A DNA stretch of 28,748 nt from Gemmatimonadota bacterium (lineage in GTDB: Bacteria; Gemmatimonadota; Gemmatimonadetes; Longimicrobiales; Gaopeijiaceae), in the NCBI GenBank assembly GCA_039589315.1, contig JBDHHQ010000058.1, positions 1 to 28,748 of the forward strand, written 5' to 3'. This document shows positions 2,497 through 10,337 of the stretch, piece by piece (the stretch's first letter is position 1; every line of letters starts with the position of its first letter). The position numbers were made by a program, and so were the translations under genes. A model generated the notes under the pieces. The model made no database searches. It saw only the letters and a program-made list of their open reading frames with translations, and was not told where the DNA came from.

Positions 2497-3693
2497 ATGA
2501 GCGGTAGGCTCGCTCTCAGCGGCGAGGGAAGAGCGAAGTGGCGCGGCCTGGTTACGGCGCTGGCGATCGCCATGCTATCCGTCGTCCTCCCTGGCGGAGC
2601 TCAGGACAGAGAGCCGCAACTCCAGGCCTGGCTCGGCTGCTGGGTGCCCATCGGTCCACTCGGCGACGGCGCGGCGCTGTGCTTCCAGCCCGCCGCTGCC
2701 GGCGAAGGGGTAGAGATGCTCGTGGTGGCGGACGGGGGCGTGACGGCGCGGGAGATCATCAGGGGTGTGGGTGAGAGGCGGGCGACCGGACGGGAGGGGT
2801 GCGAGGGCTGGGAGGAAGCCCGGCTCTCCCCTGACGGAAAGAGGATGTACACCCGGTCGACCTTGACGTGCGCCGACGGCCACAGCCGGAGCGCGACCGG
2901 GATCATGTCGTTCGTCACGCCCACGCAGTGGATGGATGTGCGCTCCACGTACGTAGGGGCAGAGCGGGTCGCCTCGGCTCAGTATTTCCAGCGGGCGTCG
3001 ACCCAGGTGTTCGCCGAGGCGGGCGTGACCCCGCTTCCGGACGACGTCGCCGCCTCGGCCGCTGCGGCACGCCTGGCCGCGTCCGTTCCGCCCTCGCTCG
3101 ACCACGTGATGGAGGCCAGCCGGCAGGTGCACGGGAAAGCCGTCGAGGCGTGGATCGTGGAGACGGGCCAACCGTTCCGGCTGAACGGGCAGGCCCTCGT
3201 GGGCCTGGCCGACGCCGGCGTCCCCGAGTCCGTCATCGACGCGGTCGTCGCGGTTTCCTTTCCGCGGAAGTTCGCCATCGACCGGGGCGTTGCCCAAGAG
3301 GTGGCCCAGCCACCACCGGCGCCGAGCGCTGCGGTCGCCGCGGGCGTGCCGCTGCCCTTCTCTCCCCTCTATTTCGGATTCGGGTACAGCTACCTGTACC
3401 GCTACGGCTATCCGGGATACGGGTATGGATACAACCCCAACTTCTGGTACCCTGGCTATCGACCCATCTACGTGACCGTGACGCCCCGTCCTCCCCGCAC
3501 CGCCCGGGTGGTGAACGGCAGGGGATACACGAAAGGAAGCTCGCGGCTGCCCACCGGCACAACGTCGGGGCTGGGCCGGGGGAGTGTCCAGCGATCCGGC
3601 GGCTCGTACCAGCCCGCCGGCGGCTCTGGCTCGGGCTCGGGGTCAACCGGCCGGAAGGCCAAGCGTCGCCGGCCGGGCGGCGACGAGCCCTGA
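2497..3693 (+). CDS. Secreted hypothetical protein with 4 Cys and a Tyr/Gly-rich then Arg/Gly/Ser-rich C-terminal tail
   Basis: GGGAGG RBS at 2485-2490 and ATG 2497; hydrophobic signal segment; begins 17 bp after the barrel gene stop. Confidence 0.75.
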   Translation: MSGRLALSGEGRAKWRGLVTALAIAMLSVVLPGGAQDREPQLQAWLGCWVPIGPLGDGAALCFQPAAAGEGVEMLVVADGGVTAREIIRGVGERRATGREGCEGWEEARLSPDGKRMYTRSTLTCADGHSRSATGIMSFVTPTQWMDVRSTYVGAERVASAQYFQRASTQVFAEAGVTPLPDDVAASAAAARLAASVPPSLDHVMEASRQVHGKAVEAWIVETGQPFRLNGQALVGLADAGVPESVIDAVVAVSFPRKFAIDRGVAQEVAQPPPAPSAAVAAGVPLPFSPLYFGFGYSYLYRYGYPGYGYGYNPNFWYPGYRPIYVTVTPRPPRTARVVNGRGYTKGSSRLPTGTTSGLGRGSVQRSGGSYQPAGGSGSGSGSTGRKAKRRRPGGDEP

Positions 3694-4004
3694 CGTGATC
3701 GGCGGCAGGCTGCCACATCCGTGAGGGCTCGCGCGGGACCGACGGGTACACCCGCTGTGGCTCGCCCGACGCTGACCTCGACCTCACCGGCGCTCCGCCA
3801 ACGGCCGGCCTCGACATCATTCCACGCCCGCCAGCGGTCGGCCTCGTGCACGGGTCCCCACTGCCGAATCCTCCTTTTCCCGACAGACGCGACGGACCTT
3901 CCTCGCTAGGCTCAACATGGGAAGGTGTGTGGGATGGCTACCCTCGAGGCGGCTTGGTCGTCGCTGTCGTTCGGCTGGGCCTGCCGGTACCGGGAGGCGG
4001 GGGG

Positions 4005-4802
4005 ATGCAGCTGCAGGGAAAGGTGGCAGCGATCACGGGCGCGTCCAGGGGGATAGGCAAGGCCCTGGCGTTCGCCCTCGGGAAGCGGGGATGCCACCTC
4101 CTCCTCACCGGTTTGGAGAGGCGGGAGCTCGAGGACGTGGCCCGGACCCTGGAGACCGCGCATGGCCGGGCGGTGCCTTGGTTGGCCTTGGACCTGGTCG
4201 AGGCGGACGGGGCACCCGCCTTCATCGAGTGGGTCCGCAGCCGAGACCCGCCGCTGGACATCCTGGTCAACAACGCCGGCGCCGGCCAGTTCGCCTCGTT
4301 TGCCGGGTCGGCGTGGAGTGACGCCGAGCGTACGCTCCTGCTCGACGCTCTCGTGCCCACCCGCCTGATCCACGGACTGCTTCCCATCCTCCGACGTCGT
4401 CCGGAAGCCGCCATCGTCAACGTCAGCTCGGCCAGCGCCCGGGTCCCCTACTGCGGACTCGCCGTGTACGGCGCGAGCAAATCCTACCTCTCGAGTCTCA
4501 GTGACACATTGGCCGCCGAGCTCTCCGGAACCGGTGTCAGAGTGCTGTGCATCCACCCGGGGTTCACAAGGACCCAGTTCCTCACCTCCGCGGCCATGGA
4601 CATGAGCCGGATTCCGGACTGGTTCATGCACGAGCCGGAGGACGTGGCGGACCGCATCGTCGGCATGCTGGAGGGGGACAAGGCCTGGGCATATGGGGAT
4701 CTGGCGACCCAGGCTGGGCTGGCGGTGGCGGCCGCGCTTCCCCACAAGGCCAGGGCCCGGGTCTTCAAGAACCTGTTCTGGAGGCTCCCCGATGAGGCCT
4801 AA
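4005..4802 (+). CDS. Short-chain dehydrogenase/reductase (classical SDR)
   Basis: TGASRGIG, NNAG, NVSS, catalytic YGASK, HPGFTRT; GGGAGG upstream of ATG 4005. Confidence 0.92.
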   Translation: MQLQGKVAAITGASRGIGKALAFALGKRGCHLLLTGLERRELEDVARTLETAHGRAVPWLALDLVEADGAPAFIEWVRSRDPPLDILVNNAGAGQFASFAGSAWSDAERTLLLDALVPTRLIHGLLPILRRRPEAAIVNVSSASARVPYCGLAVYGASKSYLSSLSDTLAAELSGTGVRVLCIHPGFTRTQFLTSAAMDMSRIPDWFMHEPEDVADRIVGMLEGDKAWAYGDLATQAGLAVAAALPHKARARVFKNLFWRLPDEA

Positions 4803-5802
4803 GGGCGCGGTGTTGGCGGGTCTGGCCCTCGTCGCAGTCACCCTGGGGCTTGTCCATTGGTACATGCTCGAGTGCGAGGGGCAGTGGGACGGCCCGGTAC
4901 TGGAGGACTCGATGGGGGACCGTCTGACGGTCCTGGAAGAGCTGCTCCGTGCAGACGTGTCGTACCTGGCCGACACCCTCGGTCCAAGGAACCCTCCGCA
5001 TCACGAGGAGCTCGAGCAGGCCTCCCGATGGATACAGGAACGGTGGCGGAGCCACGGCTACCAGGTGGGGGAGCAGGGGTTCCTGGTCGATGGGGCGCCC
5101 TGCAGCAACCTGGAGATCGAGATTCCCGGCCGGGTTCGTCCGGACGAGATCGTCATCGTCACGGCCCAGTACGACACCTGGCTCGACTCGCCGGGCGCCA
5201 ACAACAACGGGAGCGGCATGGCTGTGCTCCTGCAATTGAGCGACCTGCTGAAGGACCAGGAGCTGGACCGGACACTGAGGTTGGTGGCGTTCACGACGCA
5301 GGAGCCGCCGTACAGCGGCACCGAGGCCCAGGGGAGTCGCGTGTACGCTCAGCGCTCGTTCGACCGGGGCGAAGACATCCGCGTGATGCTGTCCATGGAC
5401 GCCATCGGCATCTATAAGCACGGGCCGGGAAGCCAGCAGCTGCCCTTCCCGTTCTCGCTGTTCTATCCGGATCGGGGCGACTTCCTGGGCTTCATCGCCA
5501 ATCTGTCGTCCCGCCAGTACGTGGTGGATGCGACCCGCGGGTTCAAGAAGGGCACCTCATTCCCGATTCAAGCGGGCAGCGTCCCCTGGTGGGTGAAGGG
5601 CGCATCGTGGTCTGACCATGCGTCGTTCTGGCGCCTGGGCTATCCGGGGATCCAGGTCACGGATACGGGTGCATTTCGGTCCCCGGCCACCCACACGACC
5701 GACCTGGACACGATCGAGAACCTCGACTTCGAGGCCCTGGCCCGCATCACCATCGGGATGTACGCGTCGATCCTCGAGCTGACCACGGTCGCGGAGGGGT
5801 AG
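4792..5802 (+). CDS. M28 family peptidase homologue with N-terminal signal/anchor and altered active site
   Basis: M28 motif order is kept (TAQYDT, PGANNNGSG, FTTQEPP, LSMDAIG, WSDHASF, THT..D) but with H>Q, D>N and E>Q; start overlaps the end of the SDR gene. Confidence 0.85.
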   Translation: MRPKGAVLAGLALVAVTLGLVHWYMLECEGQWDGPVLEDSMGDRLTVLEELLRADVSYLADTLGPRNPPHHEELEQASRWIQERWRSHGYQVGEQGFLVDGAPCSNLEIEIPGRVRPDEIVIVTAQYDTWLDSPGANNNGSGMAVLLQLSDLLKDQELDRTLRLVAFTTQEPPYSGTEAQGSRVYAQRSFDRGEDIRVMLSMDAIGIYKHGPGSQQLPFPFSLFYPDRGDFLGFIANLSSRQYVVDATRGFKKGTSFPIQAGSVPWWVKGASWSDHASFWRLGYPGIQVTDTGAFRSPATHTTDLDTIENLDFEALARITIGMYASILELTTVAEG

Positions 5803-5804
5803 CC

Positions 5805-6221
5805 ATGCCCGCCGAGGTCGCGCGATTCCTGATGCTCCAGGGCGCGATCGTCGTGTTCCTCGGCGTCCTGGCCGGCTTCCCGTTCTGGCTGGCCATCATC
5901 CGGGACCGGGGACCCGATGCCATCCGGGCCTGGCGGGTGGCCCACACCACGCTGATCGCCGACGGTCTCCTGCTGCTGATCGTGTCCCTGATGCGTCCGC
6001 ACCTCGCCCTGAGTGGGAGCGTCGCCTGGCTGCTCGGCTGGGCGCTGGTGGCGTCGGCTTACGGGTTCGTGTTCGCCCTGGCGGTGGGGGCGTGGGTCGG
6101 GGAGCGGGGCCTCGCCCCGGTGCCTCTGGGACGCAACAGCCTGTTCTTCGCGGGACATGCGATCGGCGCCGGCGGCGCCGTGGTCGGGGCGGGTCTGGTT
6201 CTCGTCGGGCTCCTCGCGTGA
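5805..6221 (+). CDS. Four-helix membrane protein, StyC/styrene-oxide-isomerase-like (putative heme b)
   Basis: Four hydrophobic segments; AWRVAHTTLIADG and ERGL resemble StyC GWARAHSGPALNG and NRGL with the same spacing (StyC sequence recalled from memory); GGAGG RBS. Confidence 0.6.
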   Translation: MPAEVARFLMLQGAIVVFLGVLAGFPFWLAIIRDRGPDAIRAWRVAHTTLIADGLLLLIVSLMRPHLALSGSVAWLLGWALVASAYGFVFALAVGAWVGERGLAPVPLGRNSLFFAGHAIGAGGAVVGAGLVLVGLLA

Positions 6222-6245
6222 GAAGCCCGGGAAGGAGGCAGTGTC

Positions 6246-7643
6246 ATGCGTAAGCCCAAGCTGCAGATCATCGTCCTCTTTCAGAATCTGGGAGAACGAC
6301 AGGCCTACTACGCGCGCTCACCTGCTCCACCCCTGGCGGGAATCCTGCTCGCCGCAGAGACGCCGCCCATCGTCGAGGTCGAGGTCCTGCACGAGATGGT
6401 CCGGCCCATCGACTACGGCACTGACGCGGATTACATCGCGATCAGCTTCATGGACTTCTGCGCGCCGCATGCGTACGAGGTGGCCCGGCGCTTCCGAGAG
6501 TTGGGGAAACCGGTGATCGCAGGCGGCAAGTACCCGACCACGTTTCCGGACGAGGTCATCCCCCATTTCGACGCGACCGTGGTGGGCGAGGCCGAGGGCG
6601 TTTGGCCTCAGGTGGTGGAGGACCTGGTCGCCGGCAGGCTGCAGAAGGTCTACGAGGCGCCGCTGTCCATGAAGCTGGAGGGCATCCCGCCTCCGCGCTT
6701 CGACCTGGTCGAGCCGGAGTTCGCCGTGCCGATGGTCACGGAGGCGACCCGGGGGTGCATCTTTCGCTGCGACTTCTGCCAGCTGACCGTGAAGCCGACG
6801 CCGTTCCGCTGCCGTCCCGTGGAGGACGTCATCGCCGACCTGACAGCGACCGAGCGCTTGCCATTCCGGAAGCGGAAGATGGCAATGCTGATGGACAACA
6901 ACCTGGGTGGGAACCTGGACTACGCGAAGGAGCTCATGCGGGAGATCGCCAAGCTGGAACTCTGGGCCCTGGGCGTTCAGTTCAGCTTCAACTACCTCCA
7001 TGACGACGAGTTCATCGATCTGCTGGCAGAGGCCCGTACGGGCATGGTATTCGTCGGCCTGGAGTCGCTGAATGAGCCCAGCCTCCGGTCCGTGCACAAG
7101 CTGCACAACCGGGTGCAGGAATACGAGGAGTTGTTCCTGAAGCTCAAGCGCAAGGGTATCCTGACGTTCACGGGGATGATTCTGGCCCTGGACGAGGACA
7201 CGCCCGAGTACTACCGGAATCTCCCGAAGAACCTGGAGCGGGTGGATCCCAGCGCCATCCTCCTCTCCATCGCGATTCCGATTCCCGGCACGCCGCTTCA
7301 CGCCAGGGTCGAGGAGGAGGGGCGGATCTTCGATCACGATCTGGCACACTACGAGGGGGACCACCTGGTCTATCATCCGCGCGGCGTGACCTCGGAGCAG
7401 GTCTTCCAGACGTTCAATCTGCTGAACCGTAAGTTCTACTCCTGGCCGGCGGTGGCGAAGCGGTGGGGACGATTCATGCGGGCCTACCTGCCGAACCGGT
7501 CGGCCAAGCACCGAGCGTTCCACTCGCTGCTGATGACTTACGTGCTCTACAAGCTCTCTGCCTTCCAGCGGTACCACGCACGACAGCGGGTCTTTCCGAT
7601 GGCCGAGGAGTTCGCCCGGCTCGTGCCACCGGTGCAGGCTTGA
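6246..7643 (+). CDS. B12-binding-domain radical SAM protein
   Basis: N-terminal cobalamin-binding Rossmann-like motifs (PVIAGGKYPT, VVGEAE), CxxxCxxC in TRGCIFRCDFC, FVGLES, PIPGTPL; GGAGG RBS. Confidence 0.92.
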   Translation: MRKPKLQIIVLFQNLGERQAYYARSPAPPLAGILLAAETPPIVEVEVLHEMVRPIDYGTDADYIAISFMDFCAPHAYEVARRFRELGKPVIAGGKYPTTFPDEVIPHFDATVVGEAEGVWPQVVEDLVAGRLQKVYEAPLSMKLEGIPPPRFDLVEPEFAVPMVTEATRGCIFRCDFCQLTVKPTPFRCRPVEDVIADLTATERLPFRKRKMAMLMDNNLGGNLDYAKELMREIAKLELWALGVQFSFNYLHDDEFIDLLAEARTGMVFVGLESLNEPSLRSVHKLHNRVQEYEELFLKLKRKGILTFTGMILALDEDTPEYYRNLPKNLERVDPSAILLSIAIPIPGTPLHARVEEEGRIFDHDLAHYEGDHLVYHPRGVTSEQVFQTFNLLNRKFYSWPAVAKRWGRFMRAYLPNRSAKHRAFHSLLMTYVLYKLSAFQRYHARQRVFPMAEEFARLVPPVQA

Positions 7644-7699
7644 TCGTTCGCGCCGTCGTCGACACGTCATCCAAACCACGCCTCGAGAAGCTCTGACCC

Positions 7700-7728
7700 T
7701 TGCGATAGTAAACCAAATGGTTTAGCAT
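7700..7728 (+). promoter_or_regulatory. Sigma-70-type promoter overlapped by a palindromic ArsR-type operator
   Basis: TTGCGA (7700-7705), 17 bp spacer, TAGCAT (7723-7728); inverted repeat TAAACCA-aa-TGGTTTA at 7709-7724. Confidence 0.75.
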
Positions 7729-7735
7729 TGCGGCC

Positions 7736-8089
7736 ATGGTGACATTCGCTTCGGACGCAGCACTCGACCGGACCTTCGCCGCACTGGCGCATCCCACCCG
7801 GAGGGCCATCCTCACGCGCTTGGCCCGGGAGGGCCCAGGATCCGTGTCCGAGCTGGCCGAGCCGTTCGACGTGTCCCTCATGGCCGTGTCGAAGCACCTC
7901 AAGGTGATGGAGGAGGCGGGTCTGGTGGTGAGGAGGAAGGACGGGCGAGTGCACCGCATGCGCTTCGATCCCGCACCGATGGAGAAAGCGTCGGACTGGA
8001 TCGAGCAACACAGGGAGTTCTGGGAGGGGCAGCTCGATCGGCTGACTCGCTACCTGGAGGACACCAACAAGGGGGAGGAGAGGAAATGA
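7736..8089 (+). CDS. ArsR/SmtB family transcriptional repressor
   Basis: FAALAHPTRRAIL, SVSELA, AVSKHLKVMEEAGLV..RKDGR, W...LDRL..YL tail typical of SRPBCC-linked ArsR proteins. Confidence 0.93.
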   Translation: MVTFASDAALDRTFAALAHPTRRAILTRLAREGPGSVSELAEPFDVSLMAVSKHLKVMEEAGLVVRRKDGRVHRMRFDPAPMEKASDWIEQHREFWEGQLDRLTRYLEDTNKGEERK

Positions 8090-8529
8090 GCACGGAAACC
8101 AGCACGTCGCTCCGTCTGTCCCGGGTCATCGCGGCTTCCCGCGACCGGGTCTTCGAGGCGTGGACGCGCCCCGAGCACATGCGGCAGTGGGCGTGCCCCG
8201 AGCACGCGACGATGGAGGACGTCCAGGTGGACCTGACGGTGGGGGGCCGCTACCGCATCCAGATGAAGGGGGCGGAAGGCCAGAGCTACACGGCCTACGG
8301 CGTCTACCGGGAGATCGAGCCGCCCACACGGCTGGTCTACACGTGGGATTGGGAGGAGGAGGATCATCACATGGGCGAGGACACGGTCGTTACGGTGGAG
8401 TTCAACGATCTGGGCGGGTCCACCGAGGTCGTGCTCACCCATGAAGGCTTCCCCGCCAAGGAGGTCACGGACGCTCACACCGAGGGGTGGACTTCCTGCC
8501 TGAACCGACTGCTTGGGCTGTTCGAGTAA
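8086..8529 (+). CDS. SRPBCC/AHSA1-like ligand-binding protein
   Basis: RVFEAWT.PE, DLTVGGRY, GVYREIEPPTRLVYTW, H.EGW...L..L; ATGA overlap with the ArsR gene. Confidence 0.92.
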   Translation: MSTETSTSLRLSRVIAASRDRVFEAWTRPEHMRQWACPEHATMEDVQVDLTVGGRYRIQMKGAEGQSYTAYGVYREIEPPTRLVYTWDWEEEDHHMGEDTVVTVEFNDLGGSTEVVLTHEGFPAKEVTDAHTEGWTSCLNRLLGLFE

Positions 8530-8535
8530 CGTCGG

Positions 8536-8560
8536 AACGGCCCCGCGCCACGGGGCCGTT
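8536..8560 (+). terminator. Stem-loop after the SRPBCC gene (probable terminator)
   Basis: Perfect 10-bp inverted repeat AACGGCCCCG-cgcca-CGGGGCCGTT just after the stop codon; U-tract is weak. Confidence 0.5.
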
Positions 8561-8670
8561 GGCGATCCGCACGAGATGGGGTGGTGGCGGATGGGACGGG
8601 CCCGGACGGAGCTTCTCCGACCGGGCCCGGGTGCGTGGAGGGCCCCAGACCCGCAGAGGTACGCGCTGGG

Positions 8671-10217
8671 GGCACGAGAGCCTCGCCTGAGAGATCGAGG
8701 TCTCGAGATCGTTGCGCACTCCTCGGCGCTGGGCCGAGGTTATGGGAGACTCCCCCGCACACCCTGGGCGGTGGGTCCGGATTCGGGGGCCGATCCGGTC
8801 CCGCCCGGGGCCAACGCGATCGTGGCAATGGCGAGCCTGCTGCATCGACTGAAATCGACGAAGACATCAGCCCCGATCCCGCCGACGCGTTCTTCGCCGA
8901 CGGCATCCACGCAGAGATCATCACGCACCTCGCGCGGATCCCGGGCCTCGACGTCATCTCACGAACGTCGGTGTTGCCCTATGCCACGGACGCCAAGTCG
9001 ATCATGACGATCGCTGCGGAGCTCGGCGTGGACGTCGTCCTGGAAGGGAGCGCCCGCCGTGCGGGCGACGACATCCGCGTTACCGCGCAGTTGGTGGACG
9101 GTCGCAGTGACACGCACCTTTGGGCTGCGGAGTTCGACCGGACGTGGTCGGTAGACGAGCTCTTCGCCATGCAGACCGAGATCGCCCAACAGATCACGGC
9201 GGCCCTCGAGGTCGAGCTCACGGCCGAAGAGCGGGGACGGCTCGCGACCTTCCCGACCGACAACATCGCAGCATACGAGGCCTACCTGAGGGGTACGGCC
9301 GCGGGGATGCGGTGGACCGAAGCGGGCTTCGAGGAAAGCCTGCGTCACTTCAACCGAGCCATCGAGCTCGACCCGTCTTTCGCCGAGCCGCACGCTGGCT
9401 TGGCCAACGCCTATGGAGTCCTGGCATATTTCGGGGTCCTGAGTCCCCGGGACCTCAGCCCCTGTCGCGAGCAGAGGCGATGGGCGCTCTGGCCCTGGAC
9501 TCCATGCTTGCAGAGGGGCACCGGGCGCTCGGCATGCACCACCTGACCTTCGATCGCAACTGGTCCGAGGCCGGGAAGCGGCTCGAGAGAGCCGTAGCCC
9601 TGGCGCCGTCGGATCCGGTAAGCCTCTGGGCCTACTCTGTCTACTTGACCCACGACGGAGACTTCGCCGGCGGTCGAAGGGCGATCACCCGGGCCCTGCA
9701 GCTCGACCCGCACTCCATAAACGCGTGGAACGCCAAGGGATGGAACGCGGTGGCCGAGGGGCGGCTAGCGGAGGCCCTGGCTTCGGCGGAAACGATGCTC
9801 GAGATGGACGCGTCGTCCTGGTCCGGCCTTTGGCTCAAGGGAGCGGCGTTGCGTCAGCTCGGAGACGACGAGGCTGCAAGGCCTGAGCTCGAGGCCGCCG
9901 TCACGCTTTCCGGAGGGCTACCGGGCCCGAAGGCCTCACTGGCCCACGTCCTGGCCGCCCAGGGCGAGTCCGAAGCGGTGCGGGCGATCCTGGACGAGCT
10001 CCTCGGGGCCCGTGAGGTCGCCTACGTGCCGGCCTCCCAGGTTGCTCGGGTCTACGAGGCTCTGGGCGACGCCGACGAGGCCATCCGCTGGCTGGAGCTC
10101 GCCTACGAAGAGGCAGACGGGTTTCTGCACTTGGCGAATCGGTGGCCCCGGTACGATCTCCTGCGATCGGACCCTCGATTCCAGGAGATCCTGCGACGCC
10201 TCGCGCTTCCGGAGTGA
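8671..10217 (+). pseudogene. Frameshifted TolB-like/FlgO-domain + TPR protein, probably a decayed Ser/Thr kinase-TolB-TPR gene
   Basis: FFADGIHAEII..LARIPGLDVISRTS...VLEGS.RR....RVTAQLVD...HLWA in one frame; TPRs continue in another frame after about 9454 and end with DLLRSDPRFQEILRRL; the usual SIAVLPF lead-in and a clean start are missing. Confidence 0.75.
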
Positions 10218-10337
10218 GCGTTCCCGGCCCGATTGCGGGTGAGATTCCGCTGGTCGCCAGGGCGGCGCGCCATGCCACGACCACCAGTACCGCGTCGCTC
10301 CCTGCCTGTCGCGCCCACGCTCCGAAACGTTCCAGCG

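Follow-up and report, generated by a model that had tools for sequence, protein, structure and literature searches.

The window, by which we mean the whole stretch of 28,748 nucleotides that was analysed, carries a run of genes for a classical SDR, a protein of the M28 peptidase fold and a four-helix membrane protein resembling styrene oxide isomerase (SOI), with a radical SAM gene behind them. These genes, and the sites within the M28-fold gene on which the argument turns (numbered as in the Aeromonas aminopeptidase, AAP), are as follows.

4005–4802, forward strand: classical SDR of 265 aa (Pfam adh_short, 133 bits), with TGxxxGIG, Ser and YxxxK intact
4792–5802, forward strand: M28-fold protein of 336 aa with a remodelled metal site (PF04389, 68 bits; model pLDDT 94.4, Z 29.9)
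4801–4866, forward strand: N-terminal transmembrane anchor of the M28-fold protein, predicted N-in/domain-out (hydropathy peak; helix 2–25 in the model)
4873–4875, forward strand: family-specific Cys just outside the anchor, in a CxGxWxG motif (94% in the family)
5167–5169, forward strand: CAG, the Gln of TAQYDT, replacing the Zn2 ligand His97 (119/119 best homologues)
5203–5205, forward strand: AAC, the middle Asn of GANNNGSG, replacing the bridging Asp117 (119/119 best homologues)
5299–5304, forward strand: CAG and GAG of TTQE, a Gln replacing the general base Glu151 (in one subclade only) and then the retained Glu152
5398–5400, forward strand: GAC, the retained equivalent of Asp179 (the Asp of SMD), invariant across the family with Gln97 and Asn117 (the Q/N family)
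5611–5619, forward strand: retained S-D-H motif, with Asp and His invariant
5692–5694, forward strand: CAC preceded by Thr, the retained and invariant equivalent of the Zn1 ligand His256, aligned with the His of 3b35
5805–6221, forward strand: SOI-like four-helix membrane protein of 138 aa (PF26512, the SOI family; StyC profile below cut-off)
6246–7643, forward strand: B12-binding radical SAM protein with CxxxCxxC (PF04055 above and PF02310 below cut-off), accessory and not part of the core

The M28-fold reading frame is intact in the sequence from the ATG at 4792 to the TAG at 5802, and its product belongs to the family by its PF04389 Peptidase_M28 score of 68.4 bits against a gathering cut-off of 21.3. 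The preliminary description of this DNA had named the three amide codons together with a retained second Glu, SMD Asp and C-terminal His, all of which can be read directly from the sequence, and profile alignment with 3b3t and 3b35 upheld the mapping of these residues to His97, Asp117, Glu151/Glu152, Asp179 and His256. The third Asn of GANNNGSG aligns with Asn118 of the D118N mutant entry, which makes the middle Asn the equivalent of Asp117; the loop bearing the His256 equivalent is shifted in register by one residue in most members of the family. The Thr found where a Tyr had been expected before the last His carries no weight, as this position is variable (S 70, Y 23, T 6, F 6, A 5, W 5 and H 5 in the 120 rows from the best 120 of 504 homologues) and is Ile in the Aeromonas/Vibrio aminopeptidase itself. 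An AlphaFold2 model built from a 96-sequence alignment (mean pLDDT 94.4) matched 1amp with a Foldseek E of 1.6e-17 and with Z 29.9 and rmsd 3.0 over 270 aligned residues. Its best structural matches were M28 aminopeptidases, with glutaminyl cyclases at Z ~28 and transferrin receptor at Z ~27; the predicted M28 fold is intact.

In M28 enzymes Zn2 is held by H97, D117 and D179 and Zn1 by D117, E152 and H256 (PMC11312887, in part), and all known M28 peptidases are described as binding two zinc ions with these residues conserved (PMC4000134, in part). At the five ligand positions the window's protein has Q, N, E, D and H, which departs from the di-zinc aminopeptidase set, and at the general base Glu151 it has the Gln of 5299–5301. 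From known M28 chemistry, the Zn2 site would be gone through loss of two ligands, and the Zn1 site, left with Asn117, Glu152 and His256, would lack its carboxylate bridge and hold at most one weakly bound divalent ion; proteins of the subclade with all three amides (QNQ) would furthermore be without a general base for water activation. We therefore consider it very probable, on this analysis of the ligand set, that the protein binds at most one ion, and that weakly, and does not perform standard peptide hydrolysis. The single-zinc glutaminyl cyclase uses the Zn1 set yet conserves all five residues (PMC11312887, in part), and the window's protein departs from that enzyme also, with Asn at the equivalent of its Asp159 and Gln at that of its His140. 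It falls within the broad class of non-peptidase M28 homologues, in which the fold is kept, metal ligands or catalytic residues are replaced and selection is maintained.

A homologue search returned 504 proteins at E<=1e-10, and the best 120 of the 504, the query being one, were analysed (median pairwise identity 58%, minimum 45%). H97>Q and D117>N were present in 119/119 closest homologues (best 120 of 504, query excluded), and both sites are among the 44 of 335 columns that are invariant over the 120 sequences. Asp99, Asp179, the Asp and His of S-D-H, His256 and Arg65 are likewise invariant in the Q/N family; the Asp179 position is 80% Glu in the sister proteins. Site 151 is divided between Gln (53/119) and Glu (66/119), and Glu152 is kept in 116 of the 120 rows, with Q or S in the other 4 (best 120 of 504 in each case). 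Among the 150 best 50%-cluster representatives, which are more distant, 146 have His at the first site, the remaining four being two family members with Gln, one aberrant protein with Arg and one fragment. The amides are written with both synonymous codons over the 47 Q/N loci among the matches listed (Gln97, CAG 22 and CAA 21; Asn117, AAC 38 and AAT 5; 4 gaps at each). The M28 sequence recurs in a cluster of 9 members on several contigs, and dN/dS was 0.13 in the comparison with a 90%-identical relative; over 119 pairs with dS of 0.05–1.2 its median was 0.124 and its maximum 0.53. The amides are thus conserved, neither private to this sequence nor an assembly error, and the low dN/dS, a quantity that the preliminary description had put forward as a check, indicates purifying selection on the M28 gene.

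In a tree computed from 162 sequences after the diagnostic columns had been taken out, the 121 Q/N proteins formed a single clade (support 1.0, stem 0.63), the sisters of which mostly keep H/D/E, and 54/54 QNQ proteins fell in one subclade (support 1.0; a second analysis was similar). One Q/N clade with a QNQ subclade nested inside it implies that the metal site was remodelled stepwise: on the sequence tree H>Q and D>N map to the family stem and E>Q maps later, to the nested subclade only. The three substitutions, which had been presented as one signature, consequently arose in separate steps, and conservation of the Q/N/Q pattern, which the preliminary description had put forward for testing, holds for the Gln and the Asn (119/119) and fails for the Gln at site 151 (53/119). 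One protein inside the Q/N clade, P0123, has the canonical H/D/E/E/D with S-D-H changed to G-D-Y; it sits on a tip branch of 0.77 with weak placement, may be either a reversion or an early branch, and counts against our preferred reading. Ten further degenerate M28 proteins (P0145, P0163, P0196, P0228, P0241, P0247, P0253, P0255, P0260 and P0264) lie in the canonical sister group, each differing in its losses of D117, E151 or H256, and from these sequences that subfamily appears to lose catalysis repeatedly.

The mean net charge before the anchor helix of the M28-fold protein is +2.4 over 97 homologues, in keeping with its predicted orientation. The Cys of the CxGxWxG motif is present in 94% of the Q/N family, versus Met in 49% of the sister group at the same position; a lipoprotein reading of this Cys was rejected, as no lipobox was seen by eye in the aligned N-termini. 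The 138-aa downstream protein was assigned to the SOI family by its precomputed family PF26512, named SOI, by a 30-sequence profile that detects 8pnu, styrene oxide isomerase, at E 2.6e-4, and by a model of pLDDT 97 for which 8pnu was the best match among 48,161 chains (Z 14.2, rmsd 2.8, 136 aligned; Foldseek E 2.5e-3). The next structural matches were helix bundles of haem-copper oxidase (Z 12.6) and NO-reductase (Z 11.1). Against the NCBIfam StyC model NF045734 the protein reached 25 bits (1.3e-5) versus a cut-off of 150, well short of an equivalog. SOI binds haem b through His58 at its trimer interfaces and needs N64, D95, N99 and Y103 (PMC11374702, in part). The partner shares with the SOI family the four-helix fold and the axial His58 equivalent (5943–5945), which is present in 120/120 sequences, as is a second His in helix 4 (6156–6158); N64 has become D/E (108/120), N99 is Phe and Y103 is F/L. 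Since His58 is kept and N64, N99 and Y103 are changed, the partner, judged from its sequence, likely binds haem and is likely not a styrene oxide isomerase.

Charge bias predicts loops 1-2 and 3-4 of the SOI-like protein inside (mean K+R 4.4 and 2.7, versus 0.15 for loop 2-3), which would put both invariant His on the same, inner side and the N-terminus outside, where the M28 domain would end. The predicted topologies of the two proteins are compatible, and the N-terminus is placed as the fusions described below would have it. This orientation is opposite to that in the SOI structure paper, where loops 1-2 and 3-4 are periplasmic (PMC11374702, in part), and the discrepancy counts against our preferred reading. 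The accessible part of PMC12502698 yielded no topology data, and the ESM Atlas gave generic M28 and SOI clusters only.

In 8 metagenome loci the SOI-like gene carries an in-frame TGA at codon 90 (L109:1389-1391, L112:2517-2519, L113:2473-2475, L114:1511-1513, L116:1638-1640, L117:7700-7702, L130:1050-1052 and L131:997-999), a position at which TGG (Trp) stands in 4 close relatives. The frame past the TGA is equally constrained (pN/pS 0.22 downstream versus 0.23 upstream, six loci), TGA is a true stop elsewhere on two of the TGA-bearing contigs, and a hairpin with a GG-led loop lies ~11–16 nt downstream. These sequence features suggest recoding, by Sec or read-through. Counting against it, L128, which has TGG, has the same hairpin; Cys is absent from the five commonest residues at the TGA position in 120 homologues, no Rfam SECIS match was found near the TGA in 6 loci, and the hairpin showed no compensatory pairs.

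To place the module in its genomic context, loci were gathered from GTDB genomes, metagenomes (best 80) and relatives with search patterns that returned both Q/N and canonical genes, and tblastn gave a tally of 47 Q/N loci, the window included, versus 71 canonical loci, leaving out L051, a fragment that does not cover the sites. The counts are descriptive, because the loci share ancestry and cannot be treated as independent: L029 and L030 are almost the same sequence, and a single group of close relatives supplies many of the metagenome loci. Among the matches listed, a close SDR gene was present in 34/47 Q/N loci, or 32/36 of those with at least 300 nt upstream, versus 0/71 canonical loci (0/63 with at least 300 nt upstream). 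A SOI-like gene was present in 42/47 Q/N loci, or 40/42 of those with at least 300 nt downstream, versus 0/71 canonical loci, again among the matches listed. The SDR has the TGxxxGxG, catalytic Ser and YxxxK of classical SDRs; its Ser, Tyr and Lys are intact in 29/29 orthologues covering the sites, and its 3' end shares 11 nt with the beginning of the M28 gene, a length found exactly in 28/36 loci (both among the matches listed). Moreover, the M28 and SOI-like genes are fused, independently, at three separate tree positions (P0036/P0038, P0082 and P0122; also in locus L035). A search for longer fusions among proteins of 621–2000 aa gave one match at 40% identity, which is weak evidence.

The preliminary description had proposed testing whether the amide signature tracks with a radical SAM cassette. 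It does not: among the matches listed, a close orthologue of the radical SAM gene was found in 5/47 Q/N loci and a distant one in 2 more, those beside a DedA/VTT gene, compared with 42/47 for the SOI-like gene and 34/47 for the SDR, and the radical SAM protein was rejected as a core partner. Other accessory genes recur, again among the matches listed: DUF3419/BtaA-like and/or GNAT genes in 11/47 Q/N loci and a MacB-type ABC permease in 5/47. In two genomes (L036, and L039 together with L194) BtaA-like/GNAT genes separate the M28 gene from the SOI-like gene; L039 itself has no SOI-like gene locally, and a second contig of that genome, L194, has BtaA-like, GNAT and SOI-like genes. No BtaA-like or GNAT homologue was found by tblastn in the window's own genome, and the SDR, GNAT and radical SAM proteins had no characterised equivalog in PDB and NCBIfam searches. 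Several loci count against our preferred reading: L107 lacks both the SDR and the SOI-like partner, the SDR is missing from L031, another SDR lies upstream in L033 and L108, and 14 distant SOI-like matches (8 + 6) have no M28 neighbour in the stretches read. By record title the module occurs in Gemmatimonadota, Caldithrix, Zixibacteria, Myxococcota, Verrucomicrobia, Nitrospirota and deltaproteobacteria, and its distribution is patchy: in each of two 401-genome phylum samples, the centre genome was the only one in which a close SOI-like gene was found.

Around the operon, the window has an ArsR-family regulator and an AHSA1/SRPBCC gene after the radical SAM gene (7736–8529), genes that recur among the other Q/N loci only in L025, the 90% relative, and a stretch at 8640–10300 that is missing from L025 and holds a TolB-like/TPR gene with its start missing and a frameshift near 9460. 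Broken copies occur in relatives, with the M28 gene split by a frameshift at L041:5520-6540 and the SDR truncated at L028:7694-7960 and L036:7552-7746. One group of relatives has a lipoprotein-like gene of 210–219 aa after the SOI-like gene (L116:1823-2479, with equivalents in L109, L112, L113, L114, L117, L128 and L131) that has no Pfam/NCBIfam match. In two distant genomes the operon has as its neighbour a DUF4386 membrane protein encoded on the other strand (L026:6207-6914 and L034:5288-5977), and two CRISPR-DR2-like repeats lie at a contig end (L127:4724-4819). A c-di-GMP-I class riboswitch (RF03167) was detected in 3/24 loci scanned (L112:272-354, L113:227-305 and L120:869-947; 56.5–65.9 bits, gathering 59), ~60 nt before the SDR start and followed by a terminator-like hairpin; its candidate ligand is c-di-GMP or c-AMP-GMP (specificity, PMC6140456, in part). 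The window has no riboswitch of this type and no Rfam match at E<=1, and no promoter or terminator consensus was found in 3600–8600.

We hypothesize, with a probability of roughly 0.45, that the M28 protein is a non-peptidase substrate-binding subunit of an SDR/SOI-like membrane module that tailors an envelope lipid or an exported amino-metabolite; a non-proteolytic role, which the preliminary description had favoured, is our best reading of this protein as well. In view of the 11-nt overlap and the fusions, we regard the M28 protein as the component that does the binding on the outer side in a stoichiometric SDR/M28/haem-protein module. In this module, a predicted membrane-anchored, periplasm-facing M28 subunit would be joined by an intact SDR and a predicted haem-binding SOI-like protein. 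By the positive-inside rule the M28 domain would lie outside, with the SDR and the face of the four-helix protein that bears the haem His inside. Such a module would cross the membrane: redox or isomerase chemistry would take place on the inner side, and binding or hand-over on the outer side. The old metal pocket would then hold an amino or carboxyl group with no cleavage. The substrate may be lipid-like with an amino group, which is the weakest step and is drawn from the accessory genes: BtaA is a betaine-lipid enzyme that makes the homoserine lipid precursor (PMC10685587, in part), and SAM-dependent and lipid-associated accessory genes together point to an amino-lipid or an exported lipophilic metabolite. 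As tblastn found neither a BtaA-like nor a GNAT gene in the window's own genome, it is the relatives that carry this argument for a lipid. A precedent exists in M28 proteins of biosynthetic clusters that are not peptidases (PMC4000134, in part). A bolder form of the proposal, which we regard as speculative and unlikely, is a new three-subunit membrane-spanning enzyme, composed of a single-metal M28 protein, an inverted SOI-type haem protein and an SDR, that builds or installs a new amino-lipid or envelope modification across Gemmatimonadota, Zixibacteria, Myxococcota, Nitrospirota, Verrucomicrobia and deltaproteobacterial lineages; if true, it would give uncharacterised SOI-like proteins a natural function.

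It is possible, if somewhat unlikely, that the M28 protein is instead an active one-metal enzyme with new, glutaminyl cyclase-like chemistry, in which an ion on N117/E152/H256 would serve as the Lewis acid in hydrolysis, acyl transfer or deacylation (the last acting, for example, on an exported intermediate that the GNAT had acylated), and Gln97, Asp179 and S-D-H would form a hydrogen-bond network. Exact and invariant amides, rather than variable residues, would suit such an enzyme, as would the invariance of His256, Asp179 and S-D-H and the near-invariance of Glu152, the glutaminyl cyclases among the structural matches (Z ~28) and the GNAT and MacB neighbours in relatives; both glutamates are kept in 66/119 homologues (best 120 of 504), which fits a one-metal catalyst equally well. 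However, glutaminyl cyclase keeps as a zinc ligand the Asp159 (PMC11312887, in part) that is Asn in the Q/N family, the general base is Gln throughout one subclade that includes the window's gene, and where Glu152 is Q or S (4/120 rows) the operon is nevertheless unchanged (L032, L126 and L127). The continued loss of Glu151, and sometimes of Glu152, alongside invariant polar residues suggests that the pocket is kept for binding, and an ongoing degeneration of this kind in the alignment (E151Q in 53/119, E152 replaced in 4/120) suggests a better fit to binding than to catalysis. That the protein is still a peptidase, with another metal pair or an unusual mechanism, we consider very improbable: the M28 fold is intact, database names say peptidase and the nested P0123 has all canonical residues, but two of the five ligands and the general base are amides, the known M28 peptidases all bind two zinc ions with these residues (PMC4000134, in part) and the neighbouring genes are not proteolysis genes.

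An improbable alternative is that the module, instead of being a biosynthetic enzyme, acts across the membrane as a sensor or redox relay, in which the outer M28 domain would sense a ligand or accept electrons through the conserved membrane-adjacent Cys, the four-helix protein would carry a bis-His haem and the SDR would couple it to NAD(P)H. Such a relay would account for the second invariant His in helix 4 and the loss of SOI's N99 and Y103, for the oxidase and NO-reductase bundles as next structural matches, for the family-specific Cys (94%) and for the c-di-GMP-I class riboswitch that leads the operon in 3 loci. Classical YxxxK SDRs, however, transfer hydride to small carbonyls and do not pass electrons to haem, both His are predicted on the same, inner side, no recurring linked regulator or quinone enzyme was found in the loci read, and Z values near 12 for helical bundles may arise by chance. 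Random decay or assembly error finds no support beyond the isolated broken copies in relatives (L041, L028 and L036) and has a negligible probability; we exclude it because the amides are conserved (119/119) and under purifying selection (dN/dS ~0.12), in a sequence present on several contigs (the cluster of 9).

Non-peptidase M28 homologues are already known as a class, with over 550 in MEROPS and few of them characterised (PMC4000134, in part). A search of the open-access literature found no description of the Q/N clade or of an SDR–M28–SOI operon. The database label 'M28 peptidase' is likely wrong for the Q/N proteins, in which a di-zinc hydrolase site has been converted step by step (first H>Q and D>N, later E>Q), a course that can be tested directly. 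The operon also ties SOI-like proteins, which are related to a haem enzyme, to a constant genomic setting, and its core of three small genes, ~2.2 kb and expressible in a laboratory strain, makes a SOI-like role outside styrene degradation testable.

Compared with the M28 di-zinc aminopeptidases (1amp AAP, Streptomyces griseus SGAP and Bacillus YwaD 6hc6), the M28 protein shares the fold (Z 29–31, rmsd 2.1–3.0), the motif order and the retained E152, D179, S-D-H and H256, and differs in the family-wide Q/N, the E151>Q of a subclade, the N-terminal anchor and the fixed SDR and SOI-like partners. The canonical sister subfamily, 30–45% identical and similar in size, anchor and GxRN, QxxP, YPxxGxF, WSDH and DT..R motifs, keeps H/D/E/E/(E or D)/YH, its other degenerate members being sporadic, and has a SOI-like gene or close SDR in 0/71 loci among the matches listed; it is presumably E. 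coli YfbL-like. YfbL is itself only a predicted peptidase (bioRxiv 2025.09.29.679331, in part). Glutaminyl cyclase resembles the Q/N proteins in its non-peptidase use of the fold and in that the retained ligands are those of its Zn1 site, E202 and H330, but its Asp159 and His140 are conserved and both are amides in the Q/N family.

CA_C2195/DUF4910, transferrin receptor and GPAA1 have likewise lost catalytic residues and have binding or biosynthetic-cluster roles, and the eukaryotic non-peptidase M28-like proteins, among which we presumably may count nicastrin and nicalin, are membrane-anchored subunits of complexes. CA_C2195 binds one zinc and occurs in polysaccharide clusters (PMC4000134, in part; for GPAA1, PMC4111754 and PMC7522609, in part). 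These proteins have other substitutions and other partners, and the accessible parts of the papers report none with an SDR and a SOI-like protein. The SOI fold, which the partner shares, was reported in 2024 to be unique. The partner is like StyC in its four-helix fold (Z 14.2) and its equivalent of the haem-ligand His58; unlike StyC, it stands in loci where styAB/D genes are absent from what was read, has N64>D/E, N99>F, Y103>F/L and an extra invariant His in helix 4, and is predicted to lie in the opposite orientation.
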